This document shows positions 11,451 through 59,898 of a stretch of DNA of 64,000 nucleotides, one piece after another. A model generated the notes under the pieces. It did no database searches, had not been told where the DNA came from, and saw only the letters and a list, made by a program, of their open reading frames with translations. The stretch spans positions 320,001 through 384,000 of the forward strand of contig CAWDPO010000017.1 in NCBI GenBank assembly GCA_963804165.1. The letters are read 5' to 3'. This DNA is from an uncultured delta proteobacterium (GTDB lineage Bacteria > Desulfobacterota > Binatia > UBA9968). The stretch's first letter is position 1; each line of letters opens with the position of its first letter. The position numbers and the translations under genes were made by a program.

Positions 11451-11458
11451 GACTTACC

Positions 11459-38089: not shown

Positions 38090-38110
38090 TATGGCGTCAT
38101 TCCGTCCAAA

Positions 38111-38261: not shown

Positions 38262-39374
38262 CTATATCGAATAGAAATCCTTGGGATTTCGCACCAGTAT
38301 TTTATCTACTAAAGCAGCTGAAAGATCCTCGCGCGCTTTCATCGTCTCGACCAGCGCCTTTTCTTCCGCGGGATCATTGTGACCGTAGTCGGAGCCGATC
38401 ATCAGGTGATCCTCGCCAATGTATTCCGCCAGGTACGGGATGTCTTCGTCCGCTTCACAGGCGACGTAGATCCGATAGTTGCGGAACAGATCTTTGCACG
38501 ACGCATGTTTCCAGCGCGCATCAGGAAAGGACGGGCGCGGGCGCGCCGAGCGCTTCAAGTGATGGTATAAGAACGGCACCCAACTTGCCGAAACTTCGAG
38601 AAAACCGAATTTCAAGCTAGGAAATCTTTCCGGAATCGCACTGGCCACGAGATCGCGAAAACCGATAATCGGCAGCAGGTGCGAGGCTGCGAAAGTTCCA
38701 TTCAATTCAAGATCGAAGAAGTCCAGTAAATGGCGGCAGCTTTGTCCGGTGTGAACACAGATCGGCAGGCCGAGCTTTTCGGCTTCCGCGTAGATCGGAT
38801 AAAAGTGAGGATTGTTCAGGGTGAGCGACCCCACGATGCCGCTGAAAAATATTCCCACGGCGCCGTTCAGTTTGGCCTCGTGCATCTCTTTGATAGATTC
38901 GTCCACGCTGTGCAGCGGCAGCACGGCGACCCAACGAAGGCGCCCGCGCGATTTGCCGAACACCTGCGCCAGGTACCGGTTGTAGGCGCCGCACAGTGCG
39001 ATCTCCAAGCCGACGTCGTCGGTGATGTGAATTAGAAATAACGTCGGGTAAATCACCTGCACGGCGACTCCAGCCTTGTCCATGTCGGCCAAGCGCGCTT
39101 CGACATCGGTAATTTCACGGCAGCCCAGGCTGATATCGGTCCTGCCGGCTTCGCGTTTCGACGCGGTCGGCGTGATGATGCGAAAGCCGCCTTTGCCGCT
39201 GGCTTTTGGAAAAATATTTCCGTCGATGAGCCACAGAACATTAAAATCCCGATACAGCGTGTCGTCCGGAGCGGCGAGCATGACAGGCCGGCGGTGATAC
39301 GAGTTTTTGTCAAATAGCTTCCACATGCTCTCCGACTCTGCGATGTGCGTGTCGGCATCGATGATTCCGGTCAT
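38262..39374 (-). CDS. amidohydrolase_2 family (LigW/ACMSD-like) metal-dependent protein
   Basis: IIDADTH, RLADMD, QVIYPT, PICVH, GSDYGH. Confidence 0.9.
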   Translation of the reverse strand: MTGIIDADTHIAESESMWKLFDKNSYHRRPVMLAAPDDTLYRDFNVLWLIDGNIFPKASGKGGFRIITPTASKREAGRTDISLGCREITDVEARLADMDKAGVAVQVIYPTLFLIHITDDVGLEIALCGAYNRYLAQVFGKSRGRLRWVAVLPLHSVDESIKEMHEAKLNGAVGIFFSGIVGSLTLNNPHFYPIYAEAEKLGLPICVHTGQSCRHLLDFFDLELNGTFAASHLLPIIGFRDLVASAIPERFPSLKFGFLEVSASWVPFLYHHLKRSARPRPSFPDARWKHASCKDLFRNYRIYVACEADEDIPYLAEYIGEDHLMIGSDYGHNDPAEEKALVETMKAREDLSAALVDKILVRNPKDFYSI

Positions 39375-39563
39375 AAAGATCTCCTCGAATACGGTCTTAC
39401 GAAATCTATCGAGGACCGATCGCCCGCGTCAAGCGGCTTGGCCGCATTGAATCTAGAAAAACGTTCACCGCACGGAGTTCGAGCCGAGAAAATATCGTAC
39501 GGATTGACAGCCAAATCTCGGCCGTGATTAAAGAGGCCCAGGGCCAAGGAAGGGAGGCTTGTC

Positions 39564-40682
39564 GTGATCAACGGATATCGAGTTTACGATGCCGACGCCC
39601 ACGTCAATGTGGCGCCACAGATGTGGGAAGATCTGCCGAAGGAATTCGCCGCGCGACGGCCGCGGCCGGCGTTGATCCACGACGGCGCCGAGCTTGGCGC
39701 GTTTACCGCGGGCTGGTTGACCGATGGGCGCATGGAGCCGCATGGGTTGGGGCCGGGCTTGCAGCCGGCGACGCCGCCGCGTTGGGTGGTCGAAGGGCCG
39801 GACCGGGGTTCTTTGACGCTCGTCGATCCGGACGCGCGCATCCGCGATCTCGAGCGTCTGGGGATCGACGTGCAGTTCTTGTTCCCGTCGACGTTATACG
39901 CGCGTTGGACGAGCGATCCGCGTTTCGAAGCGGCACTTTTTCGCGCCTACAATCGTTTCATCGCGCGCCAAACACGCGCCCACTCGAAACGTTTGAAATG
40001 GGCGGGCTTGATCCCGCTGCGCGAAGCGCGCGAGTCGATCGTCGCTTTGGAAGAAATGCTCAAGTTAGGAGCCTCGGCGGCCGTGGTGTTCGGCACGGCG
40101 GGTGACAAGATGCTATGCGACAGCGGTTTTCAGAATTTCTGGGAAGAGTTCGCGCGCTGCAGGCTGCCGCTCTGCGTGCACATGGCGGCGAGCTTCCCGC
40201 CGTTCGATAGCTGTGTGGAAAGTTTTCTCGATGCCCACGCGCTCAGCATGGCGTTGCCGGCGCAGATGGCCTTCGTCGCGCTGCTCGGTAGCGGTATGAT
40301 GGATCGCTATCCTGACTTGCGCATTGCCTTCATGGAGTTCGGCGCGGAGTGGATTTTCTACATGGTCGGCCGGCTGGATCATTATTTAGCGCGGGATCGC
40401 GAGATCCAACCGAGCGTGCTGAATGCGCGCATGCCTGAAAAAACTATGAGGGAATATCTTCGCTCCGGGCGCGTTTTCATCTGTGGCGAGATGGAAGACC
40501 CGCTGATGAAAGAAGAATTGGCGCTCATGGGCGAGGACCAGTTGCTTTACTCGTCCGATTACCCGCACGGCGAGGGGCGGGAAAACGCGGCTCAAGAGCT
40601 TTTACAGCGAAGCGATATCAGTGAAACGCAAAAACAGAAGATCCTTTATCAGAATCCGATAAGGCTGTTTGGGGATATTTAA
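39564..40682 (+). CDS. amidohydrolase_2 family protein
   Basis: YDADAH, QFLFPS, PLCVH, SSDYPH. Confidence 0.9.
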   Translation: MINGYRVYDADAHVNVAPQMWEDLPKEFAARRPRPALIHDGAELGAFTAGWLTDGRMEPHGLGPGLQPATPPRWVVEGPDRGSLTLVDPDARIRDLERLGIDVQFLFPSTLYARWTSDPRFEAALFRAYNRFIARQTRAHSKRLKWAGLIPLREARESIVALEEMLKLGASAAVVFGTAGDKMLCDSGFQNFWEEFARCRLPLCVHMAASFPPFDSCVESFLDAHALSMALPAQMAFVALLGSGMMDRYPDLRIAFMEFGAEWIFYMVGRLDHYLARDREIQPSVLNARMPEKTMREYLRSGRVFICGEMEDPLMKEELALMGEDQLLYSSDYPHGEGRENAAQELLQRSDISETQKQKILYQNPIRLFGDI

Positions 40683-40827
40683 CGCGTTCAAGCCGTTCAA
40701 ATCGTTCAACGCGTTCAAATCGTAAGGCGAATGTCGGTCGGTGGTCGGCGCGGGCGGAGGCTCTTTCAAACGTCGGGAAACCGTACTAAATAATAGAAAG
40801 CCAAATTATTTCAAGGAGACTTTGACC

Positions 40828-41916
40828 GTGGGAATTATCGATGCCGATACTCATATCGATGAAACCGATGACACCTGGGAGTACATGCAAGAAGCGGATG
40901 TGCAGTTCAAACCGGCGACCGCTTATCCGTCGAATCCGGATCCGAAGCTGCCGCCGGCGCGCTACTGGTTGATCGACGGCAAGCGCCAGATTCGCTTCAT
41001 TCGCAGCGACAAAGACTCGGGCACCACCGTGGCGACGCGCGAGCTGCTCGACGTCAAGGCGCGGCTCAAGCACATGGATGAGCTGGGCACGGATACCCAA
41101 GTGATTTATCCGACGCTTTTCTTGATGGAGGCGACGGAAAAGCCGGAGCTCAATTCGGCGATGCGCCGCAGCTATAACCGTTGGTTAGGCGACCGCTGCA
41201 GTCAATCGGGCGGACGACTGCGCTGGGTTTGCATGCCGCCGCTGCAGAAAATGGACGAAGCCTTGGCGGAAGTACGCTGGTCAAAAGAGCACGGCGCCTG
41301 CGGCATCTTGAAAAAAGGCGACCGCGAAGCGGGTAAGTATCCCGCTGATCCGTACTTCGAGCCCCTGTACGCGGAAGCGGAGAAGCTCGATCTGCCGATC
41401 TGCATTCACACCGGCTCGGGCGTGCCGGATTTCTCGCCGGCGCGGGAATTCTCCCACGGCCAGTTCATGCGCACGAAGGCGGCGGCGATGAACGGCATCA
41501 TCGGCCTGATTCTGCATAAGATCCCGACGAAATTTCCGAAGCTCCGCATCGGTTGCATCGAAGCCGGTTCCATGTGGGCGCCGTTTGTCGCCTACGATCT
41601 GCGCCGGCAACAGCTTCGTCAGCAGGGGCGCGAGAGCACGAGCGTGCTCGGTGTCCCGTTGCTGAACCTGGCGCAAAATGTATTTCAGGAAAATCGCGTC
41701 TATATCACCTGCCAGGTCGACGAGGATCTTCCATATATTATTAAATCCGTCGGCGAAGACAATTTGATGGTCGGCTCCGATTACACCCATCGCGATCCGT
41801 CGATGGAGCTTGAATTTCGCAAGGAGCTGCAAGCGCGCGCGGACAAGGGCGATATCCCGCAATCGGCCGTGCAAAAAATTCTCTACGACAACCCGAAGGC
41901 GTTTTACGGATTATAG
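40828..41916 (+). CDS. amidohydrolase_2 family protein
   Basis: GTG start after AAGGAG; IIDADTH, QVIYPT, PICIHTG, GSDYTH. Confidence 0.9.
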   Translation: MGIIDADTHIDETDDTWEYMQEADVQFKPATAYPSNPDPKLPPARYWLIDGKRQIRFIRSDKDSGTTVATRELLDVKARLKHMDELGTDTQVIYPTLFLMEATEKPELNSAMRRSYNRWLGDRCSQSGGRLRWVCMPPLQKMDEALAEVRWSKEHGACGILKKGDREAGKYPADPYFEPLYAEAEKLDLPICIHTGSGVPDFSPAREFSHGQFMRTKAAAMNGIIGLILHKIPTKFPKLRIGCIEAGSMWAPFVAYDLRRQQLRQQGRESTSVLGVPLLNLAQNVFQENRVYITCQVDEDLPYIIKSVGEDNLMVGSDYTHRDPSMELEFRKELQARADKGDIPQSAVQKILYDNPKAFYGL

Positions 41917-41964
41917 AACATGTTGTTCGGTCGTAGTTCAATTTGGATTTTTCAATCTATCAGC

Positions 41965-42026: not shown

Positions 42027-42046
42027 GAATTTCAGGAGGTCATGAG

Positions 42047-42598
42047 ATGATTGTTCTCAGTCCAGAAGGAAAAGCGCAAACGTCGGCGGCGAAAGTCGCG
42101 AGTTTGCCGCAGTTCACGGAACTGCGGGGCAAAGTGTTGGGTCTGCTCGATAATAGCAAGCCCAACATGGACAAGCTGGCCGAGCGCTTCGCCGAACAGC
42201 TCAAGGAAAAATACGGCGTCGCCAAGGTGATTAGCCGCCGAAAGCTCACTGCCCAGCAGGGCGCGCCCAAACAATATCTCGACGAACTGGCCTCGCAGGC
42301 TGATTTTGTTATTAGCGGGCTCGGTGATTGAGGATCGTGCACGTCGTGGAGTGTCCACGACTCAATCGAGATTCAAAAGCGCGGCCGCTTTGCGATCACG
42401 GTGATTACCCACGCCTTCGCCGCGTTGGCGAAATCTGAGAAGGAAGCCTTTGGCGCTCCGGATCATCCCGTGCTGGTCGTGCAGCATCCGATCGGCACGG
42501 TGAAGATCGAAGAAGTGAATAAAAAAGCCGACGCGGCGTTCAGTAAGCTGATCGAGATTCTGCTCGCGCCAGAGGCGGCGAGGACGAAAGTCGCGTAA
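42047..42598 (+). CDS. UGSC-motif selenoprotein (183 aa; Sec at TGA 42329-42331)
   Basis: AGGAGG RBS; frame stays open past TGA: ...ISGLGD-U-GSCTSWSVHDSIEIQKRG...; joins track ORFs 41981..42331 and 42401..42598 in frame; paralogue at 55645 has TGA at the same position. Confidence 0.88.
42343..42361 (+). promoter_or_regulatory. putative bacterial SECIS hairpin
   Basis: GTCGTGGA-GTG-TCCACGAC, a perfect 8-bp stem starting 11 nt after the UGA. Confidence 0.8.
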
Positions 42599-42857
42599 CC
42601 AAATTCGTTTCGGTTTCGGCTTCAAGTTCAGCGGCGTCTCGGAAATTCGTTCACAAAGTTTTTAGAGTTGGCAGCAGGTGAAGTCGAACGCAAATCCCCC
42701 TGTATCCCCCTTTTTTCAAAGGGGGGATTTTGTTCCGTGTGGTTCTCACCCCTCTTTGACAAAGAGGGGAAGGGGAGATTTCTCCGATGGAATGCCGTGG
42801 CAATAATTCAGCGACCTTCCGGAACAGGATATTAGCGCGTAGCCAGAGAAAGCGATT

Positions 42858-43910
42858 ATGACTACAGCAGCACTTCAAGCGGAACGTTTCGAAATACCCG
42901 ACGATATTTGGGCGGCGCAGGCTTTTTTCGAAGAAAAAGGTTGGGGTGATGGTTTACCGATCATTCCACCGACGGAAGAACGAGTGGCGCAAATGCTCGC
43001 GGCGACCAAGCGCAAACCCGACGAAGTGATCGGTGCGGTGCCGCCGCGCTGGGCTCAAGCGACGGTGGAGAAGATCGCCATCAACGGCGTGATGGCGGGC
43101 TGCAAGCCGGAATATATGCCGGTGCTGATCGCCGCGGCCGAAGCGCTCACCGATCCCAAGCTCAATCTCTATGCGTTGCAAGCGACGACCGGAGGGCCAG
43201 CGGTGATGCTCATCATCAACGGGCCGATCCGCAATCAGTTGAACATCAACGGCGGGTCCAATGCGTTGGGCGAAGGATGGCGCGCCAACGCGACCATCGG
43301 CCGCTTCGTGCAACTGGTGAAACGCAATATCGGCGGCTCCTATCCCGGCACGACCTGCAAGGCGACTCTAGGTTGGCCTGGAAAATATTCCATCTGCGTC
43401 GGCGAAAACGAGGAGGCGAGCCCGTGGGAGCCGCTGCACGTCGAGCGCGGCTTCAAAGCGGAGCAAAGCACGGTCACGGCGATCAGCGCGGATGCGTCGA
43501 TCCGCGCATCGGATTTGGACAGCTCGACGGCTGAAGGCGTGCTGATCAATTTCGCGCAGAAAATGGACGGACCGTCGGGGCCGGAAGCGATCATGGTAAT
43601 TTGCCCCGAGCACGCCAAGATCATCGCCGGCGATGGTTTCAGCAAAAAGGACGTTCAGAAATTCATCTGGGAGCGCGCCGCCTATCGTATGAAAGATCTT
43701 CCCGACGAGACTTTCGAGCAGCGCGTCAAGCGCCGATCGGATCTAAAGCTGACGCGCGACAGCATTATTCCCGTAACCGATAGGCCCGAGGACATACTCG
43801 TCATCGTCGCCGGCGGCGACGGCTCGCAGTCGCAGTACATTCACGTCTGGGGACAAAGCACGCCCGAGGGCGGGTCGACGAGATCGGTCACTAAAATAAT
43901 CAAAGATTAA
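42858..43910 (+). CDS. conserved hypothetical protein, partner of the UGSC selenoprotein
   Basis: DGLPIIPPTEERV..ML, EKIAINGVMAGC.PEY, ANATIGR, GWPGKY, SPWEP motifs shared with 56747..57814. Confidence 0.8.
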   Translation: MTTAALQAERFEIPDDIWAAQAFFEEKGWGDGLPIIPPTEERVAQMLAATKRKPDEVIGAVPPRWAQATVEKIAINGVMAGCKPEYMPVLIAAAEALTDPKLNLYALQATTGGPAVMLIINGPIRNQLNINGGSNALGEGWRANATIGRFVQLVKRNIGGSYPGTTCKATLGWPGKYSICVGENEEASPWEPLHVERGFKAEQSTVTAISADASIRASDLDSSTAEGVLINFAQKMDGPSGPEAIMVICPEHAKIIAGDGFSKKDVQKFIWERAAYRMKDLPDETFEQRVKRRSDLKLTRDSIIPVTDRPEDILVIVAGGDGSQSQYIHVWGQSTPEGGSTRSVTKIIKD

Positions 43911-44013
43911 GAGTTCCAAACGTTCAAATCGTTCCAGTCGTTCCAATCGTTTCGGATAGCGCTTGTCCGATGTATTACCCTCGCCCGCTCGCGGGAGAGG
44001 GGAGGGTGAGGGC

Positions 44014-44989
44014 GTGCATCGACCTTTCCTATTCATCAGCCTGCTTTTGAGCTTGTTGTCCCGTGGTGACATTTCTTTCGCCGCCGACAAGTTGCGCATA
44101 AGCTACTCGGGTACAACGACGAGCAACGCGCTCCTTTGGGTGACCAAGGAAGCGAAACTTTTTGATAGGAACGGCATCGACGCCGAAGTGCTTTACCTGG
44201 CTGCGTCGCTCGGCCAGACCGCGTTGATTGCGGGAGAGACTCAGTTCGCGGTTTACACCGGACTGTTGATGACGCCAACCCGGCTTGCAAGGCGCCGACG
44301 TGACGATGATCGCGGGATTTCTAAATTATTTAGTCTCCCGCTTGGTCGTGCGTCCCGACATCAAGACCGCTGCGGACTTGAAAGGCAAACGTTTGGCTGT
44401 GTCGCGCTTCGGCACGGCGTCGGATTTCGGCACCCGTCTCATGGTTTCCAAGCTCGGTTTGAATCCCGACACCGACGTTACGATTCTGCAGATCGGCGAT
44501 ACGCCGACCCGCGTCGCCGCGATGATGGCGAAGGGCGTGGACGGCGCGATCTTCGATCCGCCGGATCACAAGCGTGCGGTCGAAAACGGCGGCCGCATCA
44601 TGATGAACCTGGAAGAAACTGTGATTCCCTACCAACACGCCGGCTTGATGACGACGCGAAAGTACATCGCCGCCCGGCCGGATATCGTCAGACGTGTGGT
44701 CAAATCGATCGTCGAGGGCGCCGCGGTGGTGCGCAAAGATCCCGAGACCACCAAGCGAGCGCTGTCGGTCCGCATGCGCATCAAAGATCCCAAGGACCTC
44801 GAAGAAACCTATCAGCAGCTGCGCGGTTTCACGCAAGCCAAACCTTATCCGAGCCTCGAAGGTTTCAAAGCGATCTTGAATGATTTGTCGAAGCGCATGC
44901 CCGCGGCGAAAAATGCTGATCCCAAAGATTTTGCCGATCTCCGGTTTATCGAGGAATTGGACAAGTCGGGTTATATCGATGGGCTCTAG
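44014..44989 (+). CDS. ABC substrate-binding protein, NMT1/SsuA-like (frameshift near 44285)
   Basis: GTG start after GGAGG; ADKLRISYSG; DLKGKRLAVSRFGTASDF; ELDKSGYIDGL. Confidence 0.82.
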
Positions 44990-45064
44990 AACCGTTCCAA
45001 GTTCAATGTTCAAAGTTCAAAGTCGGACGATGCTATTGCATACGCGTGGGCGGTCTGGCTCGCG

Positions 45065-46022
45065 GTGATGCTTTTCATCTTGCCAGATTCGAGCGGTGCC
45101 GCCGACAAGCTCCGCATCGGCTACTCCGGAGCGACAGTCAGCAATGCGATGCTCTGGGTGACCGATGAAGGCAAGCTCTTTCAGAAAAACGGCATCGATC
45201 CGCAAATACTCTACCTGCAAACGACCCTTGGACAGACGGCAATGATTGCCGGCGAGATCGACATGTGCGTCTATTCCGGCAGTCTGCTTTCGTCGGCGCG
45301 GTTGCAGGGCGTCGACGTGGTCATGGTCGTGAGTTTTCTCAACAAGCCGCTATATCGGCTGGTGGTTCGCCCCGAGATTCGTACTGTCGCCGATCTCAAA
45401 GGAAAGCGGCTCGGCATCACGCGCTTCGGCACGGTCACCGATTCGATGTCCCGGCTCCTGGTTGGGCAGACTCGGGCTGGATCCGGATAGAGACGTTTCC
45501 TACGTACAGGTCGGCGACGTACCGGTGCTTCTAGCGTCCTTATCCAGCGGCAGGATCATTGACGGCGCGATCATTCAACCGCCTTACTATGTCAAAGCCG
45601 TAGCTTCCGGCATGCATGTTTTAGTCAACATGCAAGAGATGGATCTGCCGGTTCAGCAAACGGGCCTGAATACGACGCAAAAGTTTATTGCAAAAAATCC
45701 CGACGTCGTGCGACGAGCCGTCAAGTCCGTGATCGAAGGAATTCATCTAATGCGCACCAATCCCGCCGTGGCCAAGCGGGCGCTCTCCAAGCGCATGCAA
45801 ATCAAAGACGAAAAGGAGATTGGAGGATACCTATCAATTCTCAAAAGTTTCATTCAGGTGAAACCGTATCCGTCACTCTGGAAGGTTTCAGAACGATCTT
45901 CGAAGATCTGGCGAAAGCGGGTGCCGGCGGCGAAAACCGCCAACGCGAAGGAATATGTGGATACTCGATTCATCGACGAGCTGGACAAGTCCGGCTATAT
46001 CGACGGACTGTATCGCCAGTGA
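45065..46022 (+). CDS. ABC substrate-binding protein, NMT1/SsuA-like (frameshift near 45465; start uncertain)
   Basis: ADKLRIGYSG, DLKGKRLGITRFG, ELDKSGYIDGLY; paralogue of the upstream gene. Confidence 0.8.
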
Positions 46023-46218: not shown

Positions 46219-47214
46219 ATGTTGAGAGTAAAAAGATGGATGATTTGCTTTGCTTTCACTGTAGCTCTTGCTGCCGCCGCACAGGGACAAAGCCTGCCCA
46301 AAGTCCGCGCCGCCTACACCTCCATAGGCATCCAATTCGATCCGGTTTACATCATGAAGGAGCTCAACCTGTCGCGGAAATACGGCGTGGATGCCGAGAT
46401 TCTTTTTGTTCCGGTGAGCTCGCGCGCCGTTCAGGCGGCTCTGGCCGGCGAGATTCAGTTCATCACCAGCGCCGGCGTCGCGAACATCAACGCCAACATG
46501 AGCGGCGCTGACTTCGTCGGCCTGACCGCGACGCTCAATACTTTTGTGTTCAAAATCATCGCGCATCCGGATATCAAAAAGCCCGAAATGCTAAAGGGCA
46601 AGAAGGTCGGCATTTCCCGGCTCGGAGGCGCCAGCGATTTTTCCATCCGCTATGCGCTGACTCGCTGGGGCTTGGTTCCCGACAAAGACGTCGCCATTAT
46701 CCAGGTGGGCGGCGAGCAGGAAGAGTTTCTGGCGCTGCAAAACAAAGCGGTGGACGCCGTCGTTTTATCGGAGCCCTTCGCGGAGCTGGCGAAACGATCG
46801 GGTTCCGCCGTTCTCGCCGATTTAAGCCAGCTTGGCGTGGCCTATTCGATGCATGGCTTCGGTGCGCGAAAAAGTTTCATTCAGGCCAATCGGGACGTCG
46901 TCATCCGATTCATGAAAGCCTATCTCGAGGGCATCTATGTTTTTAAAACGAACAAAGACCTCGCGCTGAACGTCCTGAAAAAGTATACGCGGGTCGACGA
47001 TCTGTCCCTGGTACAAGTGGCTTATGACGAGATGTCGCAGAGACTGATCCGTAGAGCTCCCCACCCGGACCGCGAAGGCATTCAGACCATCATCGATCAA
47101 CTCGCCAAGACCCGCCCGCAAATGAAAAATCTCAACCCCGGCGACTTCATCGATCCGTCGATCTTGAAAGAAATCGAGGACAGCGGCTTTATTAAAAAGT
47201 TGTATGGAAATTAG
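46219..47214 (+). CDS. ABC substrate-binding protein, NMT1/SsuA-like
   Basis: Signal peptide; LKGKKVGISRLGGASDF; EIEDSGFIKKLY. Confidence 0.9.
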   Translation: MLRVKRWMICFAFTVALAAAAQGQSLPKVRAAYTSIGIQFDPVYIMKELNLSRKYGVDAEILFVPVSSRAVQAALAGEIQFITSAGVANINANMSGADFVGLTATLNTFVFKIIAHPDIKKPEMLKGKKVGISRLGGASDFSIRYALTRWGLVPDKDVAIIQVGGEQEEFLALQNKAVDAVVLSEPFAELAKRSGSAVLADLSQLGVAYSMHGFGARKSFIQANRDVVIRFMKAYLEGIYVFKTNKDLALNVLKKYTRVDDLSLVQVAYDEMSQRLIRRAPHPDREGIQTIIDQLAKTRPQMKNLNPGDFIDPSILKEIEDSGFIKKLYGN

Positions 47215-47313
47215 CGGTCGATGTGTCCATGCCTGATCCCTGATCTAATCCCGGATCTGACCCAAACAAACTAAACCTTTACTTCTACCTATCTGTGAGA
47301 TTAGGTGGTATCG

Positions 47314-48286
47314 ATGTCGAATCTTAAACTTACTCTTGCATGCTGGGACTACGATCGTACCCGGCCGCTCATGGATGGTCGGGTGAAGGCCGAAGGAATC
47401 GATCTCGACATAAAGGTCATGCGACCGCGCGAATTGTTTGCTCGGATGCTGGAAAAAAAAGAGTTTGAAATCTCCGAACTATCGCTTGGTCACTATGTCA
47501 CCCTCAAAGGCCGCGGCAGCTGTCCATTCATTGCGGTGCCCGTGGCGTTATCCAAGATCTTCCGCCACTCGTGTATTTACGTACGGACCGATGCGGGCAT
47601 CAGAAGCCCCCAGGACCTGCGGGGCAAGCGGGTGGGAACTACTCAGCTCGGGTCTACCGGAATTATTTTCATGAATGGAATGATGCAACACGAGTATGGC
47701 GTAGGTCTGGAGGATATCCACTGGTTCATTGGCGGATTGGATTCTCCCGCCACGAGACCGGTGGTTCCTCTGAGTCTGCCGGATAAAATTAAGGTTGACT
47801 TGCTTCCTTCGAGCCAAACCCTGGAGGCAATGCTAGAGGCCGGACAACTGGACGCCTTGTTCGCGCTGAACATTCCTTCGGTCTTCCAGAAGGGCTCAGC
47901 CCGCATAGCGCGCCTGTTTCCGAACTATTATGAAATAGAGCAGGACTATTATCGTCGCACAAAGATCTTTCCGATCATGCACACCGTGGTGGTCCGCGAC
48001 GATGTCTACCGCGAGAATCCATGGGTGGCCGGAAGTATCTATAAGGCCCTCTGCGAGGCTCGGGATCTAGCCGTCGACGGACTTTATGACACCGACGCGC
48101 TCCGCCTCTCGCTTCCTTGGCTCATCAACCATCTCGAGGAGACCTGGAAGGTCTTAGGGAAGATTTTGGACCTACGGTTTGGAGCCCAACCGTCCGGCTT
48201 TTGAGGCTATCGGCCAGTATGTCTACGAGCAGGGTTTCTCGCCCCGCCCAGTCAGCCCCGACGAGCTGTTCGCGCTGAATTTATGA
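47314..48286 (+). CDS. 4,5-dihydroxyphthalate decarboxylase (PhtD/OphC)-like protein; frameshifted near 48160
   Basis: LTLACWDYDRTRPLMDGRV, FRHSCIYV, IFPIMH; alternate frame gives FWTYGLEPNRP..YEQG..DELF. Confidence 0.75.
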
Positions 48287-48355
48287 AGACTCTTCGGCCA
48301 AGCGTTGCCACTAGCTCATGTTGTAAAACACTCATAGTTAAGTAGAGGAACATTG

Positions 48356-49210: not shown

Positions 49211-49287
49211 GCCCGCGGTAGACCATTCGCGATGCTTTGCACATCCGAGTTCGAGTTTACCTCTTAGAAATTTCTCAGGAGATTGCC

Positions 49288-50362
49288 ATGAGAAAAAGCG
49301 TTCTTTCTGGCGTGATTTCAGTTCTGGTTTGCGCGTGGGTAGTGGCGGCAACGCCAACAGCGGCGCAGGAAACCGCCGGCCAGATTTTGGCGCGACTTGA
49401 AAAGCTTTCGGCCGAGAACCGGCAGAAAGCCCTGGTCGAGCGCGCAAGGAATGAGAAAGAAGTCACGTTTTATAGCTCGCTCCAGACCAGCGATGCGGAA
49501 CCCTTTCTGAAAGCGTTCAACAAACGATACCCCTTTATCAAGGTGAATACCTATCGTATCTCCGGCCAGAAACAGGTGATCATGATCCAATCGGAGTTCA
49601 ACGCCGGCAGGCATGCCTTTGACGTTACCAACGCCTCAGCCGCTCAAGCCTTTGGGATCAAGAAGACCGGCGCGTTGGACCCGTATCCAAGCCCACAGCG
49701 CCAATATTTTTCCACCGCGCACAAGGACAAGGAGGGATACTTCACTCCGACTTATATTGTGCCGGTAGTGCTTGGTTTCAACACCAACATGGTCAAGCGG
49801 AGTGAAGCGCCCAAACGCTATGAAGATCTGCTGGAGCCCAGATGGAAGAGCAATATGATTTTGGACATCGAGGAGTTTCCCTGGTTTGCCGTGATGCTCA
49901 AACACTATGGCCGGGAAAAAGGTTTGGACTACATGAGGAGACTGGCCAAGCAGGAGATCCAGATGGGCCGGGGACGCACGACCCAGGCGCAACTGATCAG
50001 CGCGGGCGAGCGAGCCGTCGGCATAGCGCTCAACAGTTCTTCCGTGCTCGACTTCAAGACTCGCGGCGCGCCACTCGACTGGACCATTCTCGATCCGTAC
50101 TACGCCAAACCCAACATGCTAATGTTTGCGCGCCACGCGCCTCATCCCCATGCAGCGGCGCTGTTGATCGACTGGACGCTCTCCGAGGAAGGCCAATCTT
50201 TACTGTCGACCTTGGGTTACGTGGTTGCGCGCAAGGGCGTGAAGCAAAGCGTCCCGGCATTATTGGAAAAGGAGAGTTTTCTCGCCGACCCTGATTTTAT
50301 TGGTCCGATCTTGGAAGAGACCGGCAAGAGACTTTCGCAGCGTATTCACAGGTGGACGTTAG
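49288..50362 (+). CDS. extracellular solute-binding protein (Fe/thiamine cluster); true end inferred across an indel near 50328
   Basis: Signal peptide, FYSSL, GFNTNMV, APHPHAAALLIDWTLSEEGQ; the track ORF runs to 50442 with an implausible tail. Confidence 0.8.
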
Positions 50363-50701
50363 TTAGAATGTGCCGGACTTGCCTGACTCTACTCAGCGTC
50401 TTGTTCATGACGCTGATTCCGTTTTTGCTGATAGAGATATAATTAGGCAATTAAGACGAGTGACATGACTCGAACCTGAATGCCGGCGGGAGTCAATCTT
50501 CAGGTCGGATGAGAGGTGAGATTATTCCGTTGGAGAAATCAATTCAATTAGAGGTTCCGATCACTCTGGTTGAGCCGAACGGCTCTGCGAACACCGTCTT
50601 CAACCGGTCTAGACAATCGTGGGCGATGCTTGGAGATCTAATGCATCCTGTGCCGCTGTCGTTCCGTCGCCTTATGCAGTTGTTAGTGGCTTCCACTTTC
50701 G

Positions 50702-53519: not shown

Positions 53520-53975
53520 AGGAGTCGGACGGTTCCAGTCGTTCCAAACGTTCAAAACGTTCCAGTCGTTTAAGAATAGCCGGCGCGACCGGCTCAAGAT
53601 TTTCGTGTCTAAGCGAATTGCGATGGAGTTTACTGGTACGTCGTCTACGGTAGGAAGTCCGAACCGACGCATACGCAAGAGTTGCTTCGCGGATTGTCCC
53701 TAAATGTCTCTATCAGGGATGGTTGAAATCCCTCGCGTTCAGGCGAAATGAAAGTTCGTCATGCCGGCCCTTCAGCGCTGCTCAGGGTAAATTCCCAACC
53801 GGCATCCAGTTTCAATTTCAGTTCAAGCTCGAAACCCGCTTAGGTTCCGGCTTTCGCCGGAATGACAGAACCCCTCGGCTTGGAGCCGGGGGCCGTTCGG
53901 TTGATTTGCTTAGAAAACAACGCCCGTCTCTAAAACTTGCTCCTAAGAAATGCGGCGGCGTTTTCAATTGGTTCA

Positions 53976-55073
53976 TCATATCCCGTAAAACTGCCTCGGA
54001 TTGTCACACAAAATCTTTTCCACGAGGCTCGGCGGCACATCTTCTCGCGCTCTCATCTGCGTCACCAGATGAGTTTGTTCCGCAGGATCGTTGTGGCCGT
54101 AGTCGGAGCCGGTAAGCAGGTGGCCTTCGCCGGTGTATTGGATTAGGTAGGGAATATCTTCATCAGCCTCACAGGCGACGAAGAAACGGCAATCATCGAA
54201 AAGATCGGCCGGGGATTGCCATGATGCTTTCCAGCGCTTGCTGTTATCGCGCCGTAGCTTGTGGATCAAGAACGGTATCCAACTGGCGGAGGCTTCGATG
54301 AAGCCAAAGCGCAGTTTCGGAAACATGTCGGGAATCTGATTCAGCACGAGATCGCGAAACGCGTATAGGGGCGGGAAGCCGGAGTGAGACCATTGCCGAT
54401 TGCGTTCCAGATCGAACATCGCGGTGAGAGCCGGTGTGCCGGAGCCGGTGTGAATGCAGATCGGTAGATCGAGATCCATCGCCGTTTGATAGACTGGGAA
54501 AAAGTATGGGTTGTCCAACGTCAAGTTGCCTTCCATGCCGCGGAAGAATACGCCGACGGCGCCGTTTTGTTTAGCCCACTTCAACTCCTTCACGGATTCC
54601 TCGATGCAGCGCAGCGGCGGGATCGCCACCCAGTGGATGCGGTCGTGACTCTGCGCGCAAGCTTGCGCCATGAAGCGGTTATAGGCGCGGCTCAACGCTA
54701 CGTCGAGGTCGGCGTCGTCGGTGAGATAGATCAGGAACAAAGTCGGATAAACGACCTGAGCCGCGATGCCGCCGCGATCCATATCGGCAAGCCGGGCCGC
54801 TACGTCGGTCAGCTCTCTGCACGCGACCTGAATGTCTTTTCTGTTCGACTGGATCTTCGATGCCGATGGGGTGACGAGACGGAAGCCGCCTTTGCCGACC
54901 GGCTTGGGGAAAATATTGCCGTCGATGAGCCACGTCGCATTCCAGCCGCCGTATAAAGTATCGTCCGGCAGAGACAGCAAAACGGGCCTGCGCGGATACA
55001 TTTTTTCGTCGATCATCTGCCACATGGCTTCCGATTCGGCGATGTGGGTGTCAGAATCGATAACGGGTTGCAT
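53976..55073 (-). CDS. amidohydrolase_2 family protein, close paralogue of 38262..39374
   Basis: DSDTHIAESEAMW..RRPV..PDDTLY..WLIDGNIFPK..GKGGFR; GSDYGHNDPAE. Confidence 0.9.
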   Translation of the reverse strand: MQPVIDSDTHIAESEAMWQMIDEKMYPRRPVLLSLPDDTLYGGWNATWLIDGNIFPKPVGKGGFRLVTPSASKIQSNRKDIQVACRELTDVAARLADMDRGGIAAQVVYPTLFLIYLTDDADLDVALSRAYNRFMAQACAQSHDRIHWVAIPPLRCIEESVKELKWAKQNGAVGVFFRGMEGNLTLDNPYFFPVYQTAMDLDLPICIHTGSGTPALTAMFDLERNRQWSHSGFPPLYAFRDLVLNQIPDMFPKLRFGFIEASASWIPFLIHKLRRDNSKRWKASWQSPADLFDDCRFFVACEADEDIPYLIQYTGEGHLLTGSDYGHNDPAEQTHLVTQMRAREDVPPSLVEKILCDNPRQFYGI

Positions 55074-55644: not shown

Positions 55645-56208
55645 ATGGCGACGATCAAATTTCTCGATCCGAGAGTGACGATCAATCCCAAAGACCGGCC
55701 GCTGGTGCCGGGTCTGGATACGCTCGAAGGGAAAGTTGTCGGCATCATCGATAACGGGCAGGCCAACTCGACGACGATGTTTCAAGAACTCGCGCAACTG
55801 ATGCAAGAACAATTTCATACCAAAGAAGTTCTGTTCAAGACCAAACCGACGCACATGCAGGGAGCGCCGAAACCGATCATGGAGGAAATCTTAAGCCGGT
55901 GTGACGCAGTGATCACCGGTTTAGGCGCCTGAGGGTCGTGCACGTCGTGGAGTGTCCACGACGCCATCGAATTGCAAGAGAAAGGAAAGCCGACGGTAAC
56001 GCTGTGCCAGTCGATCTTCATGGAGCTGGCGCGCACCGAGGCGAAGTTTTTCGGCATTGTTAAATTGCCTCTGGTTGAAATCCCGCATCATCCCAGCGGC
56101 GGCGCGCGGCCTGGCGAACACCGGGCGGATGCCGAGGGCGCGATTAGTCTAGTTAATGAGCAGTTGACGTTGGGAGGGGATGGGTTGAAGAAGACGCGGG
56201 CGGGGTGA
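55645..56208 (+). CDS. UGSC-motif selenoprotein (187 aa; Sec at TGA 55930-55932)
   Basis: AGGAGG upstream; ...DAVITGLGA-U-GSCTSWSVHDAIELQEKGKPTV...; joins track ORFs 55645..55932 and 55972..56208 in frame. Confidence 0.88.
55944..55962 (+). promoter_or_regulatory. putative bacterial SECIS hairpin
   Basis: GTCGTGGA-GTG-TCCACGAC 11 nt after the UGA; identical to 42343-42361. Confidence 0.8.
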
Positions 56209-56270
56209 CGGGGAAAACGTGTTGCAAATTTGCAATGTGTGATTGAGTTTGTGTGTCTTGAGTAGGCGAT

Positions 56271-56680
56271 TCCTTTCCCCCTTGCGGGGAAAGGAAAGGA
56301 TAGGGGGTATGAACGCAAATAGAACGCGAGCTCGCCAGCTGCGGAAAAACCTAAGCAAAGCCGAACGATTGCTCTGGCGAAGATTACGGTTCTGGCAAGT
56401 AGACGGCTTCAAATTTCGTCGCCAACAGCCTTTGGGAAACTATATTGTTGATTTTGTCTCTTTGGAAAGACGATTGATCATTGAAGTGGACGGCGGACAG
56501 CATGCTGAAGATATGAATTATGATACCGACCGTGATGCTTGGCTACGTAATCAAGGTTTCGTGATTCTAAGATTCTGGAATAACGATGTGTTGAAGAACA
56601 TAGACGGCGTAGTGGAAGTGATTGCCAAGAATTTACAAAATACCCCCTTCCTCATTCCTTCCCCGCAAGGGGGAAGGAGG
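56271..56680. mobile_element. putative REP-flanked DUF559 cassette
   Basis: About 38-bp imperfect inverted arms (56271-56308 and 56642-56680) enclosing an AT-richer nuclease ORF. Confidence 0.55.
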
Positions 56681-56722
56681 TTAAGAACGAGGAGAAATGC
56701 CTCGTCGCCCTCTCGTCTTTAA
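56309..56722 (+). CDS. DUF559 / very-short-patch-repair-like endonuclease
   Basis: RARQLRKN...AERLLW..LR, FKFRRQ..GNYIVDF, IIEVDGGQH, RDAWL..QGF..LRFWNNDV. Confidence 0.9.
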   Translation: MNANRTRARQLRKNLSKAERLLWRRLRFWQVDGFKFRRQQPLGNYIVDFVSLERRLIIEVDGGQHAEDMNYDTDRDAWLRNQGFVILRFWNNDVLKNIDGVVEVIAKNLQNTPFLIPSPQGGRRLRTRRNASSPSRL

Positions 56723-56746
56723 ATGTGTGACTTGGAGCGTTCCATA

Positions 56747-57814
56747 ATGAAAACTCTCACCTCAAACCTCATCGAAGTCGAAGATAGCTGGGAAGCGGTC
56801 AATGACTGGTTCTGCAACGAAAAACTGAGCGACGGGTTGCCGATCGTGCCGCCGACGCCGGAGCGGGTCGAGAAAATGCTCGGCGCGACGGCGCGCGATC
56901 CGCAGGAAATCATCGGGCCGATACCGCCGAAGTGGGCGCCGTGCTCGATCGAGAAGATCGCGATCAATGCGGTCATGGCCGGATGCCTGCCGGAATATCT
57001 GCCGGTGATTGTCGCCGCAGTCGAAGCGATCTGCGAGCCGCGCTTCAATCTTTACGGCGTGCAGGCGACGACGGGATATGTCGGACCCGCGCTGCTGCTC
57101 AACGGTCCGATCAGAAAGCAGCTCAACGTCAATTGCGACTCGGGTGTATTCGGTCCCGGCTTTCGCTCCAACGCGACCATCGGCCGCGCCATGCGATTGA
57201 TTCTAATTACCGTCGGTGGCGGCTATCCGGGCGACACGGATCGATCGACGTTTGGCTGGCCGGGCAAGTACACGATGTGCTTCGGCGAAAATCAGGAGAA
57301 AAGTCCCTGGGAGCCGTACCACGTCGAATTCGGCTTTAAACCCGACGAAAGCGCCGTCACGGTGTTCGGCATCAACGGCTTTCTACCGATTCACACCGCC
57401 GGCAATCGCGGCGAGCAGGCGCTCTCGTCATTGGCAGAAGTAATCAAGATGCATCACGGCGTGAGCCATCTCGACGTCGGCAGCTTCGGCGGCGGCACGC
57501 CGCTGATCGCGCTCGGCATCGAAGACGCGGAAATCATGGCGCGTGACGGCATTACCAAGAAACAGGTCAAAGATTATTTGTGGGAGCATGCGTCGCTCAA
57601 GTTCTCCGAGATTCCTGCGCGCCGCAAAGGGCACAAGAGCGACGACGAGTTATTAAAAGACGCGCCGCACGTCACGCCCGATATGGTTGTCCATCTCTCA
57701 TCGAAGCCGGAAGACATCATGGTGATTGTCGTCGGCGGCAAGCACCGGCATTCCGTCTTCCTACCGATGTGGACGGGGCGCAATACGCTGTGTGTGATAA
57801 AGCCAATTCGATAG
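56747..57814 (+). CDS. conserved hypothetical protein, partner of the UGSC selenoprotein
   Basis: DGLPIVPPTPERVEKML, EKIAINAVMAGCLPEY, SNATIGR, GWPGKY; paralogue of 42858..43910. Confidence 0.8.
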   Translation: MKTLTSNLIEVEDSWEAVNDWFCNEKLSDGLPIVPPTPERVEKMLGATARDPQEIIGPIPPKWAPCSIEKIAINAVMAGCLPEYLPVIVAAVEAICEPRFNLYGVQATTGYVGPALLLNGPIRKQLNVNCDSGVFGPGFRSNATIGRAMRLILITVGGGYPGDTDRSTFGWPGKYTMCFGENQEKSPWEPYHVEFGFKPDESAVTVFGINGFLPIHTAGNRGEQALSSLAEVIKMHHGVSHLDVGSFGGGTPLIALGIEDAEIMARDGITKKQVKDYLWEHASLKFSEIPARRKGHKSDDELLKDAPHVTPDMVVHLSSKPEDIMVIVVGGKHRHSVFLPMWTGRNTLCVIKPIR

Positions 57815-57849
57815 TAATTGGAGTACTGAAGTGATGGAGTAATGGGAGG

Positions 57850-58866
57850 ATGGTGCTTTCGGTCATGAGAATCGAGGATGCAGGCTCGAGGATCGGTCGA
57901 GCCGCGGCGATCTTCATGCTTGCGTTTGTGTTAGCAACCCCTTGCGTGGCACAGGAGAAATTTCGCTTTCCCATCGGCGAGTCTTCGAAGACGTTAAGTT
58001 ACGGCCCGCTTTGGGTTGCCGGGAAAATGGGTTTCTTTGACAAGGAAGGCTTGGAGGTGCCGATCGTCACCATGCGCGGATCGCCGTTGACAATTCAAGC
58101 GCTGACCGCCGATTCGATCTACGTCGCCAACGCGACGGTGGATACTCTTATCAGCGCTTACGAGCGGGGCGCGGATATCACTATGATCGGCGGCCTGATC
58201 AACGGTCTCGGTTTGAGCATGATCGGCGGCAAGCCGTACAAGACCTACGCCGACCTGCGCGGCACAACCATCGGCACGCAGACGCTGACCTCCGGCACCG
58301 GCTTCGCTTTGCGCCTGGTGCTGAAGGTCCACGGCATGGAATATCCGCGCGATTACAAGTTGCTCAACATCGGCGGCGCAGCCGATCGCTATCAGGCATT
58401 AACCTCAGGCCAAATTTCCTCGGCGCCCGTTGGCGTGCCCCTCGATCTCGTCGCCAAGCAGCAAGGATTCAACATCATCGGTTACTTCGCCGATGATCAG
58501 CCCAATTTTCAGTTCAACGTCTACATCGTCAAACGCTCCTGGGCCGAAAGAAACCGGCCGCTGGTCGTGCGCTTTATGAAAGCGATGGTCTCGACGATGC
58601 GCTGGATGATGGACAATACCGAGACTGCCTGCGCTTATTTATCGAAGGAAATGGCGATCAGCGTAGAGCACTGCCGTTACGCTTCCGACTATAACTGGAA
58701 AAGCCGCATCTGGGACCGCAACGCCGAATTGAACCAGGAAGGCGTGCGCACGTTGATCAAAATCACTGCCGAGCAAGGCATTCTCAAGGAGCCGTTGCCG
58801 CAGCCGGCGAAGTACATCGATCAGAGTTTTCTCAAGCAGGCGCTGGCGGAAATTGGTAAGAGGTAA
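57850..58866 (+). CDS. ABC substrate-binding protein, NMT1/SsuA-like
   Basis: Signal peptide; PLWVAGKMGFFDKEGLEV; DLRGTTIG; VVRFMKAM. Confidence 0.88.
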   Translation: MVLSVMRIEDAGSRIGRAAAIFMLAFVLATPCVAQEKFRFPIGESSKTLSYGPLWVAGKMGFFDKEGLEVPIVTMRGSPLTIQALTADSIYVANATVDTLISAYERGADITMIGGLINGLGLSMIGGKPYKTYADLRGTTIGTQTLTSGTGFALRLVLKVHGMEYPRDYKLLNIGGAADRYQALTSGQISSAPVGVPLDLVAKQQGFNIIGYFADDQPNFQFNVYIVKRSWAERNRPLVVRFMKAMVSTMRWMMDNTETACAYLSKEMAISVEHCRYASDYNWKSRIWDRNAELNQEGVRTLIKITAEQGILKEPLPQPAKYIDQSFLKQALAEIGKR

Positions 58867-58896
58867 GGGGTGAAGCGTCAGGAATAAGGAGATTTG

Positions 58897-59898
58897 ATGA
58901 AATCGCGCGGCATTATTGCAGGAATGATACTGTTGATCGCTTTGATGTTCGTGTGGCGACCGGCGACGGCTCAAGACAAAATCAGAATGGGTCTCAGCTC
59001 GGTGAGCGGGCTTCACAGTGCGGTGTGGGTTGCGGAACAGAAGGGCTTGTTTCGTAAGCATGGAATCGACGCTGAAGTCATCGTGACTGGTCAGGGCGGC
59101 ACGGCGGGAATCAGCGCGCTGCTCGCCAACGATATCCAGATGGTGAACTCTGCGGGCGATGTTCTGGTAGCCGCGGCGTTGCGTGGCGGCGATACCGTGA
59201 TGGTCGCAAGTGTGGTCAACAAGGGGCTGCAGAGGCTCGTGACAAAGCCGGACATAAAAACCCCCGCAGATCTCAAGGGCAAACGGATCGGCGTCACGCG
59301 GATCGGCGCGGTTTCTCACTCCGTTCTGCTCATGATGCTACAGCGTTGGAAGATGACTGTGAATGATATTCAGGTGCTGCAACTCGGTTCATCGCCGAAT
59401 ATGTTGGCAAGCCTCGATAAAGGCGGCGTCGAAGGAGGCGTGCTGACAATTCCGTCGATGTTTGTGGCCGAAGATCGGGGTTATCGAGTGTTGTTGGATA
59501 TGGCAGATACCGACATTTACTATCTTCACACAATGGTCGCGACGACGCGGCAGTACATCAAAAACAATCGCGATAAGGTTTCAAGATTTCTCAAGGGGTA
59601 CGTCGAAGGGATTGCGTTCGTGAAGCAAAACAAGAAGGAAAGCTTGGAGATCGTCAAGAAAAAGCTTCGCATCGGCCCTGAACAGGAAAGAAATTTAGAA
59701 CGGTCTATCGATTTATTGATCGCAAAATACTACGAGAACGCTCCTTATCCCTCGCTGCGCGGCGTCGAGACCGTGCTCGGCTTCGTCGAAAAAGATAACC
59801 CCAAGGCAAAGGGCGCGGATCCAAAATCATTCGTCGATGACAGTTTGCTGCGCGAAATCGATCAGAGTGGTTTTATCAAAAAACTCTACGAACGTTAG
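58897..59898 (+). CDS. ABC substrate-binding protein, NMT1/SsuA-like
   Basis: Signal peptide; WVAEQKGLFRKHGID; DLKGKRIGVTRIG; EIDQSGFIKKLY. Confidence 0.9.
   Translation: MKSRGIIAGMILLIALMFVWRPATAQDKIRMGLSSVSGLHSAVWVAEQKGLFRKHGIDAEVIVTGQGGTAGISALLANDIQMVNSAGDVLVAAALRGGDTVMVASVVNKGLQRLVTKPDIKTPADLKGKRIGVTRIGAVSHSVLLMMLQRWKMTVNDIQVLQLGSSPNMLASLDKGGVEGGVLTIPSMFVAEDRGYRVLLDMADTDIYYLHTMVATTRQYIKNNRDKVSRFLKGYVEGIAFVKQNKKESLEIVKKKLRIGPEQERNLERSIDLLIAKYYENAPYPSLRGVETVLGFVEKDNPKAKGADPKSFVDDSLLREIDQSGFIKKLYER

Follow-up and report, generated by a model that had tools for sequence, protein, structure and literature searches.

In a 64,000-nt stretch of DNA from an uncultured delta proteobacterium (Binatia UBA9968), the whole of which is called the window here, two genes for selenoproteins of the UGSC family (UGSC1 and UGSC2) are each accompanied by a gene for a larger partner protein, and each UGSC protein and its partner probably constitute one two-part reductase, similar in kind to the GrdB-type enzymes and fed by thioredoxin. 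No function has been known for the UGSC family in the years from about 2007 onwards, and it figures as a selenoprotein of unknown function in the portions concerned with it of papers from 2007 (PMC1976440), 2008 (PMC2398784), 2022 and 2026 (PMC13188914). Both the family and its fusion to a domain called Unknown_1 were already known, and what the window adds is an instance that is split and duplicated. A concrete route to function is now offered by the near-obligate partner, by a selenocysteine (Sec) module related to that of selenoprotein B, and by fusions of the partner to thioredoxin-type domains.

The UGSC Gene and Its Near-Obligate Partner

The constancy with which the two genes keep company is the foundation of the argument for a joint enzyme. 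Within 79 loci fetched from other genomes with a profile of the partner, a UGSC gene lies beside the partner on the same strand, upstream or downstream, in 65. From the UGSC side, a sample of 201 genomes of the phylum was scanned with the Pfam UGSC model, which matched in 24 of them (up to 16 times in one genome), and a partner was present within 1.5 kb on the same strand in all 30 of the UGSC loci that were fetched, two of which belong to the window's own genome. The pairing is far beyond chance and close to obligate. The window's own genome has four copies of UGSC and four of the partner, two of them as fused frames (contigs C33 and C11).

Fusions between the two, which the preliminary description of this DNA had proposed as something to look for, proved to be frequent. 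Of the partner family's clusters, the 150 best representatives, whose fusions were checked with Pfam, include 34 that begin with the post-Sec part of UGSC (fusions of the Sec type that gene callers have truncated), 14 in which a full UGSC is fused to the partner and four partner-UGSC fusions that end at the Sec codon, 52 in total and in both domain orders. The others are stand-alone partners (81), tandem partner-partner proteins (six), partners with some other N-terminal (six) or C-terminal (three) extension, and fragments (two). The pairing counts, the fusions in both orders and the docking predicted below all uphold the central proposal of the preliminary description, that of an uncharacterised two-subunit selenium-dependent enzyme.

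The pairing had been described before: a UGSC/Unknown_1 fusion with the motif AVNGVMAGCxPEY is drawn by Zhang and Gladyshev 2008 (PMC2398784) in their Fig. S1A, and the Unknown_1 alignment printed in Fig. S1 of that paper shows AVNGVMAGCRPEYMP, which corresponds to the AGC.PEY block of the partner. The same block, A.N.VMAGC.PEY.P, with the conserved cysteine of the domain that is fused to UGSC in that figure, was found in both partners of the window, and the partner can be identified on this evidence as Unknown_1, a comparison that stays at the level of motifs because the 2008 paper shows 60 columns. In contrast to the published fusions, UGSC and partner are separate genes in the window, and the fused copies are elsewhere in the genome. 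The preliminary description had listed conserved motifs in the partner for which it recognised no function; neither partner matches any Pfam or NCBIfam model, which bears it out, but the domain itself has been in print, under the name Unknown_1, since the figure in PMC2398784.

The partner belongs to a very large family, with 7065 matches among the scored candidates and 5681 clusters at 50% identity (E ≤ 1e-3), and in partner 1 the conserved motifs read DGLPIIPPT, MAGCKPEY (with Cys82), QATT, NATIGR and GWPGKYSIC (with Cys180). Arg149 and Glu183 are invariant in the family, and Arg142, Asn144, Thr111, Cys82 and Cys180 nearly so. A search of the partner profile against the sequences of solved structures gave nothing meaningful (the best was a DnaB helicase, E 0.79), and a Foldseek search with the partner model gave no row at E ≤ 0.001, the best being a class I fumarate hydratase (E 3.1e-3, TM 0.22-0.25, root-mean-square deviation 18 Å), a family to which VIA-align gives a weak match with Z 3.5. 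Against 48,161 representative chains the best VIA-align score was Z 5.8 over 74 residues, and this fold search barely tested the N-terminal half of the partner because its rows mostly cover residues 135-331. Judging from the model, the partner has no clear solved relative. In the ESM Atlas the clusters nearest the partner have no common Pfam family, and their automatic name, "Thioredoxin family protein", probably reflects fused members. Real fusions of that kind do occur, with AhpC-TSA/Redoxin in the family members P0240 and P0250 and with the catalytic chain of ferredoxin-thioredoxin reductase in P0239.

Gene orders of partner-UGSC-partner or UGSC-partner-partner were seen at four loci (L041, L054, L063 and L050), and tandem partner-partner proteins of about 700 aa are represented by P0123, P0124, P0162, P0173, P0251 and P0268. 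The tandem proteins and doubled gene orders suggest that the partner may work as a dimer or pseudodimer.

Selenocysteine and the Fold of the UGSC Protein

Membership of the UGSC family is secure by Pfam, with 155.1 and 138.7 bits for UGSC1 and UGSC2 against a cut-off of 25; by the NCBIfam model UGSC1 passes and UGSC2 falls short (Table 1). Both genes carry the U-G-S-C motif with an in-frame, decodable TGA, and exactly one TGA stands at the motif in all four UGSC matches of the 7.5-Mb genome, which also has selA, selB and selD together on contig C16 (selD itself has a TGA) and a tRNA-Sec on C24. A hairpin starts 14 nt past the UGA in each of the window's UGSC genes. Across 50 aligned UGSC genes, all five of its predicted pairs are kept, four of them with compensatory changes; the pair 21:27, for instance, which is never broken, reads G-C in 32 of the genes and C-G in the other 18, and a change of the Trp codon TGG to the Cys codon TGC is accompanied by a third-base change in the opposite Val codon. 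Elsewhere the Sec column has TGA in 71 of 73 UGSC domains of other genomes (domains of at least 90 bits in the 79 loci) and Cys in two (Natrialba and Sphingomonas), a bias like that of the UGSC family in GOS, with 255 Sec to 21 Cys forms in the figures given by Zhang and Gladyshev 2008 (PMC2398784). Cultured carriers include Robertmurraya sp. (L036) and Natrialba asiatica (L057), the latter with a Cys form. By these patterns in the DNA, both UGSC genes of the window encode true selenoproteins, the in-frame UGA being read as selenocysteine. A second TGA in UGSC2 (codon 188, 56206-56208) is most likely its stop.

A thioredoxin-like fold was suggested for UGSC in the 2008 paper (PMC2398784, in the part that treats this family). 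The AlphaFold2 model of UGSC1 (pLDDT 93.5) differs from that proposal in being flavodoxin-like, with five beta-alpha units and with Sec95 placed between a strand (87-93) and a helix (96-111). Its top Foldseek matches are AzoR and SsuE (E ~3e-5, TM ~0.45), and among the rows listed, which flavodoxin-like proteins lead, there is no thioredoxin-fold protein, so a thioredoxin fold for UGSC is disfavoured by the model. The five beta-alpha units are what UGSC would share with AzoR, SsuE and flavodoxin; unlike those proteins it has no sequence match to flavin-binding families, and the likeness is one of fold, with no flavin implied. The UGSC profile, too, found nothing meaningful among the sequences of solved structures, where the best was a designed protein (E 0.014).

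A Selenium Module Shared with Selenoprotein B

In the glycine, sarcosine and betaine reductases, GrdB, GrdF or GrdH is found with the proprotein GrdE, and in D-proline reductase PrdB is found with PrdA. The window's own genome has four pairs of a GrdE/PrdA-family gene (PF09338) and a GrdB-family gene (PF07355), and all of its PF09338 matches are on contigs other than that of the window. Three of these GrdB-like genes have a TGA right after ...LT[ST]T, and ordinary gene calls would truncate them because this TGA lies past the end of the Pfam model; read through, they continue as ...LTST-U-GT.TRSGA and then for about 85 further residues. The copy on contig C10 has an internal TAA and looks broken. 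In nine other genomes of the phylum, 12 of 12 GrdB-family genes have the TGA at the same place, reading U-G-T/S-C-T-R-C-G, a tally that leaves out one partial match and the broken copy.

When the UGSC profile was compared by hhalign with 15 GrdB-family proteins read through the TGA, the two aligned over 95 columns (Prob 96.2, E 2.4e-9), Sec to Sec, with the blocks "E..GIP.v.i" and "HP.G" in register, and even the three GrdB-like sequences of the own genome, used by themselves, gave E 9.9e-7. Four control comparisons (UGSC with GrdE-like proteins, the partner with GrdE-like proteins, and the partner with both GrdB-like alignments) gave E values of 0.11 to 0.58. In addition, the Pfam UGSC model PF24696 matches the last 150 residues of three of four GrdB-family proteins (1.1e-5, with 26.1 bits against the cut-off of 25; 4.9e-5; and 1.3e-4), and the C-terminal 150 aa of the fourth have no match to it. 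These alignments show homology between the half of UGSC that carries Sec and the Sec module at the C-terminus of GrdB-type selenoprotein B. Since neither UGSC matches PF07355 (at E ≤ 1e-3 only PF24696 was reported for them), what UGSC appears to have in common with selenoprotein B is this Sec module, as seen in the hhalign and PF24696 matches, and not membership of the GrdB family. No mention of the kinship is made in the portions on this protein of the UGSC selenoprotein papers of 2007-2026, the literature search having been limited to the UGSC selenoprotein.

The resemblance to the selenoprotein B systems (GrdB/GrdF/GrdH and PrdB) goes beyond the U-G-S/T-C after a beta strand and the two shared blocks, in that a small Sec-bearing part would work with a larger second part in both, and a thioredoxin-type reductant, known from those systems, is suggested for UGSC and its partner by the fusions in relatives. 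A point of difference is that the window's genome has its four GrdE/GrdB-like pairs separately, elsewhere.

A Proposed Two-Part Reductase

Where the two parts would meet was predicted with P0192, a natural fusion of the Cys form that is 45% identical to partner 1 and that was cut between its domains and run with 14 aligned fusions. Its halves scored an ipSAE of 0.77, compared with 0.01 for the best control, the ipSAE mark being one that 116 of 157 solved complexes and two of 215 mismatched pairs reach; contacts agreed between runs to at least 91%, and the pLDDT of the scored chain, the UGSC half, was at least 80. On the UGSC side the confident part of the predicted interface consists of the N-terminal strand and CGSCTAW (residues 97-103), and on the partner side of the PPT of DGLP..PPT, IPPMMGRAT, the helix just before AGC, NLLPIQATT and NIGG, for the most part the motifs that the preliminary description had picked out.

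In the enzyme that we propose, UGSC and the adjacent partner would encode two parts of one cytoplasmic protein. The N-terminal strand of UGSC and its U/C-G-S-C loop would dock on the most conserved surface of the partner, which includes, to go by the modelled Cys-form fusion, DGLP..PPT, PP..G.AT, the helix before AGC, the QATT loop and NIGG. A small substrate might then be held in a pocket of the partner lined by Arg149, Glu183, Arg142, Asn144, Thr111, Cys82 and Cys180. In glycine and D-proline reductases, Sec attacks the bound substrate, and by analogy Sec95 would do so here, after which Cys98 would resolve the adduct to a selenenylsulfide and a thioredoxin-type protein with a CxxC motif would reduce it again. 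This last step is proposed because of the partner fusions to AhpC-TSA/Redoxin (two) and to the catalytic chain of ferredoxin-thioredoxin reductase (one), and it is favoured too by three partner loci lacking UGSC in which the partner has an N-terminal extension with CxxC. The genes that neighbour the pair across genomes suggest imported small organic acids as the substrates.

Several observations pull the other way. The docking concerns a fusion with 45% identity to partner 1 in place of the pairs encoded in the window, and its value lies in where the halves touch, not in whether they bind, because they are one chain in nature. The preliminary description had asked whether the UxxC motif comes near the AGC cysteine of the partner, and the model gives a divided answer, in that the loop equivalent to the Sec site is within the predicted interface but Cys261 and Cys359 of P0192, which are Cys82 and Cys180 of partner 1, are outside its confident contacts. 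The cysteines are also less constant than the mechanism would have them, since both Cys positions are missing from four of the 14 full-length fused representatives, the second is missing from another two, and the fused copy on contig C11 of the own genome (8791-10452 of locus L002, minus strand) reads G-H-U-S-T-C, with the partner cysteine replaced by Ala (MAGARPEY). At 14 of the 79 partner loci no UGSC lies within 10 kb, and all 14 keep the AGC cysteine; six of them have a partner that is shorter at its C-terminus, five of these six being in metagenome-assembled genomes (MAGs) labelled Poribacteria. No thioredoxin-like gene was found by Pfam and NCBIfam scans of the window between 36 and 62 kb. 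The partner has no similarity to GrdE/PrdA-like profiles or to that of the GrdB N-terminal part (E 0.58 for GrdE-like proteins, with a profile of three rows), and because it is unlike both, a pyruvoyl-based mechanism such as might be expected from a relative of GrdE/PrdA (PF09338) is not to be assumed. Lastly, the tallies of neighbouring genes over the 79 loci were made with home-made profiles, with a Pfam check on 144 of the 537 neighbouring proteins only; on the 19 loci where Pfam was run, the two agree.

The shorter partner form, seen at L005, L007, L009, L010, L011 and L027, covers profile positions 1-282 of about 350 and retains DGLPVVPPT and the AGC cysteine. The C11 fused copy adjoins binding-protein genes of the TctC and NMT1 types.

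Neighbouring Genes and Rival Explanations

The preliminary description had seen a wider module in the window, made up of amidohydrolases, the UGSC-partner pair and binding proteins, and had coupled the enzyme to uptake and to the decarboxylation or hydrolysis of aromatic or heterocyclic acids. Support for this coupling is weak. Of the 79 loci of other genomes, 23 have a gene for one of four binding-protein families no more than 4 kb from the pair, and in 18 such a gene is its immediate neighbour; an Amidohydro_2 gene is within 4 kb in only five and an NMT1 gene in only five. By family, TctC is within 4 kb at 12 loci and SBP_bac_5 at five. No third gene family is conserved beside the pair; the commonest neighbour cluster is TctC, whose density is 4.3 per 100 kb within 4 kb of the pair and 1.4 at 4-10 kb, about a threefold difference, and family III CoA-transferases, MmgE/PrpD, thiamine-diphosphate (TPP) enzymes and ADP-forming acyl-CoA synthetases also recur. 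The tendency of the pair to adjoin a binding-protein gene is real but partial, and the link to amidohydrolases is confined to this lineage. Of the two outcomes that the preliminary description had named as telling against its proposal, one has come about in large part, with little recurrent linkage to amidohydrolases and linkage to binding proteins in a minority of loci, yet a complex is predicted. The amidohydrolases, the gene like that for 4,5-dihydroxyphthalate decarboxylase (PhtD) and the NMT1 proteins are mostly a lineage-specific setting and no part of the conserved system, and the window serves as a caution in this respect, its "module" reflecting for the most part the local order of genes in a genome that abounds in genes for binding proteins and amidohydrolases.

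It is possible, if rather doubtful, that the setting is nonetheless functional, and that the amidohydrolases, the PhtD-like protein, both pairs and the NMT1 proteins act together in a single pathway that breaks down an aromatic or heterocyclic carboxylic acid, with the selenoenzyme responsible for a reductive step. The amidohydrolases are akin to ACMSD, LigW and gamma-resorcylate decarboxylase, and the window has a PhtD homologue; AH1 and AH4, the divergent amidohydrolases of the two modules, are each other's closest paralogues; and AH2, AH3, both pairs and one binding protein have stayed together in the related locus L003. The four UGSC-partner cores of the genome have an NMT1 gene within 4 kb in four of four cases and an amidohydrolase gene in two of four, compared with 30% and 11% (6.7% for both) of 20,000 random 1.8-kb segments of the same genome, or chances of about 0.008 and 0.07. 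These cores are not an independent sample, however, because they are paralogues and two of them are only 12 kb apart, and the genome has an unusually large expansion of both families, with about 311 NMT1 loci (41 per Mb) and 93 Amidohydro_2 loci. Beyond the nearest relatives the link shrinks to the few loci counted above, and within the window the two pairs are separated by MgtC-like, CYTH-like and RNase D-like genes and by two broken binding-protein genes. Unlikely as well, in our estimation, is the most far-reaching form of our own proposal, in which UGSC and its partner would be a new class of Sec-dependent reductases, with a selenoprotein B Sec module on a substrate-binding subunit of unseen fold, with which aerobic bacteria of soil and water would cleave bonds reductively in the organic acids that they take up; here the two paralogous pairs would do this within a pathway that also employs the ACMSD-type amidohydrolases and the PhtD-like decarboxylase.

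A role of the UGSC-partner pair in general thiol or selenol defence or repair, as a peroxidase or as a reductase of oxidised proteins or small disulfides, would be in keeping with the UxxC motif and with the partner fusions to AhpC-TSA/Redoxin, and is in our judgement quite improbable: there are many paralogues per genome (four in this one, and as many as 16 matches in others), the partner is a large protein whose pocket of Arg, Asn, Thr and Glu is conserved, the recurring neighbours are binding-protein, CoA-transferase and MmgE/PrpD genes, and the Sec module is homologous, to go by the alignments, to the substrate-specific selenoprotein B and not to peroxiredoxins. We give very little credence to a metalloenzyme, a hydro-lyase for example, in which Sec95, Cys98 and the partner residues Cys82 and Cys180 would ligate a metal or an iron-sulfur cluster where the two chains meet. 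Four conserved chalcogen residues distributed over two chains would suit such an enzyme, as would the class I, that is iron-sulfur, fumarate hydratases that head the partner's Foldseek rows; that fold match is weak by both Foldseek and VIA-align, the two cysteines of the partner are outside the confident interface, there are natural forms with Ala for Cys82 or without the UGSC cysteines, and no conserved His or Asp ligand motif is seen among the near-invariant columns except D31. The reductase fed by thioredoxin remains the reading that we prefer.

Gene Content of the Window

Gene identities (Table 1) were taken from lists of open reading frames (ORFs) and from Pfam and NCBIfam scans of the window's proteins, and every gene named in the preliminary description was found in its place. 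All four amidohydrolases match PF04909 and the three intact NMT1 genes match PF09084; the two broken NMT1 genes were recognised by tblastn. The three binding proteins that had been assigned to the first module are all present as genes, but two of these are frame-broken. In the second module, an ORF for a DUF559 endonuclease-like protein splits UGSC2 from partner 2. This ORF is bracketed by a 36-nt inverted repeat (56275-56310 and 56640-56675) and, with the repeats, has the appearance of a small inserted element.

Table 1. Features of the window and, in the last row, related gene pairs on other contigs of the same genome. SECIS, selenocysteine insertion sequence.
Feature	Position	Strand	Evidence and remarks
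TPP enzyme, acetolactate-synthase-like	36431-38089	+	Clusters with L003:41-1654, which is TPP_enzyme_N/M/C by Pfam; assigned via the L003 gene only
AH1, Amidohydro_2, divergent	38262-39374	-	PF04909 2.2e-23; PDB relatives ACMSD, LigW, DitZ at E ~1e-10
AH2, Amidohydro_2	39564-40682	+	PF04909 7.6e-16; relatives ACMSD, gamma-resorcylate decarboxylase at E ~1e-15; 87% to L003 orthologue
AH3, Amidohydro_2	40741-41916	+	PF04909 2.6e-23; 82% identity to L003 orthologue
UGSC1 selenoprotein, 183 aa	42047-42601	+	PF24696 2.5e-45; NF041046 132.2 bits (cut-off 125)
UGSC1 Sec codon, TGA, codon 95	42329-42331	+	GDUGSCTSWSVHD; SECIS-like hairpin at about 42343-42361
Partner 1, 350 aa, putative Unknown_1 domain	42858-43910	+	No Pfam or NCBIfam match; AlphaFold2 pLDDT 95.2
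NMT1-type binding-protein gene, frame-broken at about 44250-44285	43963-44995	+	tblastn, frames 1 then 2
NMT1-type binding-protein gene, frame-broken at about 45450-45490	45044-46022	+	tblastn, frames 2 then 3
NMT1-type substrate-binding protein, intact	46219-47214	+	PF09084 3.6e-17; TIGR01728 3.4e-22, under its cut-off
PhtD-like (4,5-dihydroxyphthalate-decarboxylase-like)	47305-48204	+	9jp7_A, E 1.3e-63; weak Pfam matches to NMT1, Phosphonate-bd
Alpha/beta-fold hydrolase	48353-49210	+	PF00561 9.6e-19
Extracellular solute-binding protein (SBP_bac_6/1)	49237-50442	+	PF13343 4.2e-18
AH4, Amidohydro_2, divergent from UGSC2	53976-55073	-	PF04909 7.3e-19; 57% identity to AH1
UGSC2 selenoprotein, 187 aa	55645-56208	+	PF24696 2.8e-40; NF041046 112 bits, under the 125-bit cut-off
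UGSC2 Sec codon, TGA, codon 96	55930-55932	+	GAUGSCTSW; SECIS-like hairpin at about 55943-55963
DUF559 endonuclease-like ORF between UGSC2 and partner 2	56243-56722	+	PF04480 7.9e-41
Partner 2, 363 aa from ATG 56723 (start 56747 also possible)	56723-57814	+	No Pfam or NCBIfam match; 42% to partner 1
NMT1-type substrate-binding protein	57850-58866	+	PF09084 1.5e-19
NMT1-type substrate-binding protein	58894-59898	+	PF09084 2.1e-23; 82% to the gene following partner 2 in L003
GrdE/GrdB-like pairs (loci L112-L119)	C45:201640-204035; C11:51244-53586; C11:83933-86404; C10:43551-46093		PF09338 and PF07355 families

The two modules are paralogous, as the preliminary description had it in calling them a duplication, but the duplication is an old one: the two UGSC copies are 38% identical, the two partners 42%, and AH1 and AH4 57%, and a recent duplication is rejected because of these values. 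In L003, a MAG labelled Candidatus Binatia with orthologues 81-89% identical to the window's genes, the order on one strand is TPP enzyme, AH2, AH3, UGSC1, partner 1, UGSC2, partner 2 and the orthologue of the gene at 58894, so that the position of the TPP enzyme gene is conserved, AH1 and AH4 are absent from the cluster, and the two pairs are side by side. In the window, 11.7 kb of other genes lie between the pairs, the MgtC-like, CYTH-like and RNase D-like genes among them having been named from their translations.

The frame breaks in the two NMT1 genes are either specific to this genome or assembly errors, because contigs of relatives, at 90-95% similarity, differ by one base in each broken stretch; in the gene at 43963-44995 the soil-metagenome contigs of relatives differ by one gap at about 44169-44331, and in that at 45044-46022 they are missing base 45469. 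Rfam gave nothing at gathering score between 36 and 62 kb of the window, and no tRNA genes were found in the window.

Short arrays of a 9-nt unit (GTTCAAATC / GTTCCAGTC) are located at 40668-40741, 43904-43959 and 53523-53578, immediately after AH2, partner 1 and the RNase D-like gene, respectively, and the element is widespread, to judge by the great number of metagenome contigs that pile up on 43900-43973. Inverted copies of an intergenic element some 110 nt long are present at 38095-38205 and 42669-42797; they are 79-82% complementary and flank AH1, AH2, AH3 and UGSC1, and other intergenic gaps hold similar elements rich in GGGGA/TCCCC. At least 12 paralogous binding-protein genes of the TctC family (Bug-type) are found elsewhere in the window, at 1-12676, 22311-23546 and 35177-36241, most of them lined up on the minus strand as one array at 1-12676.

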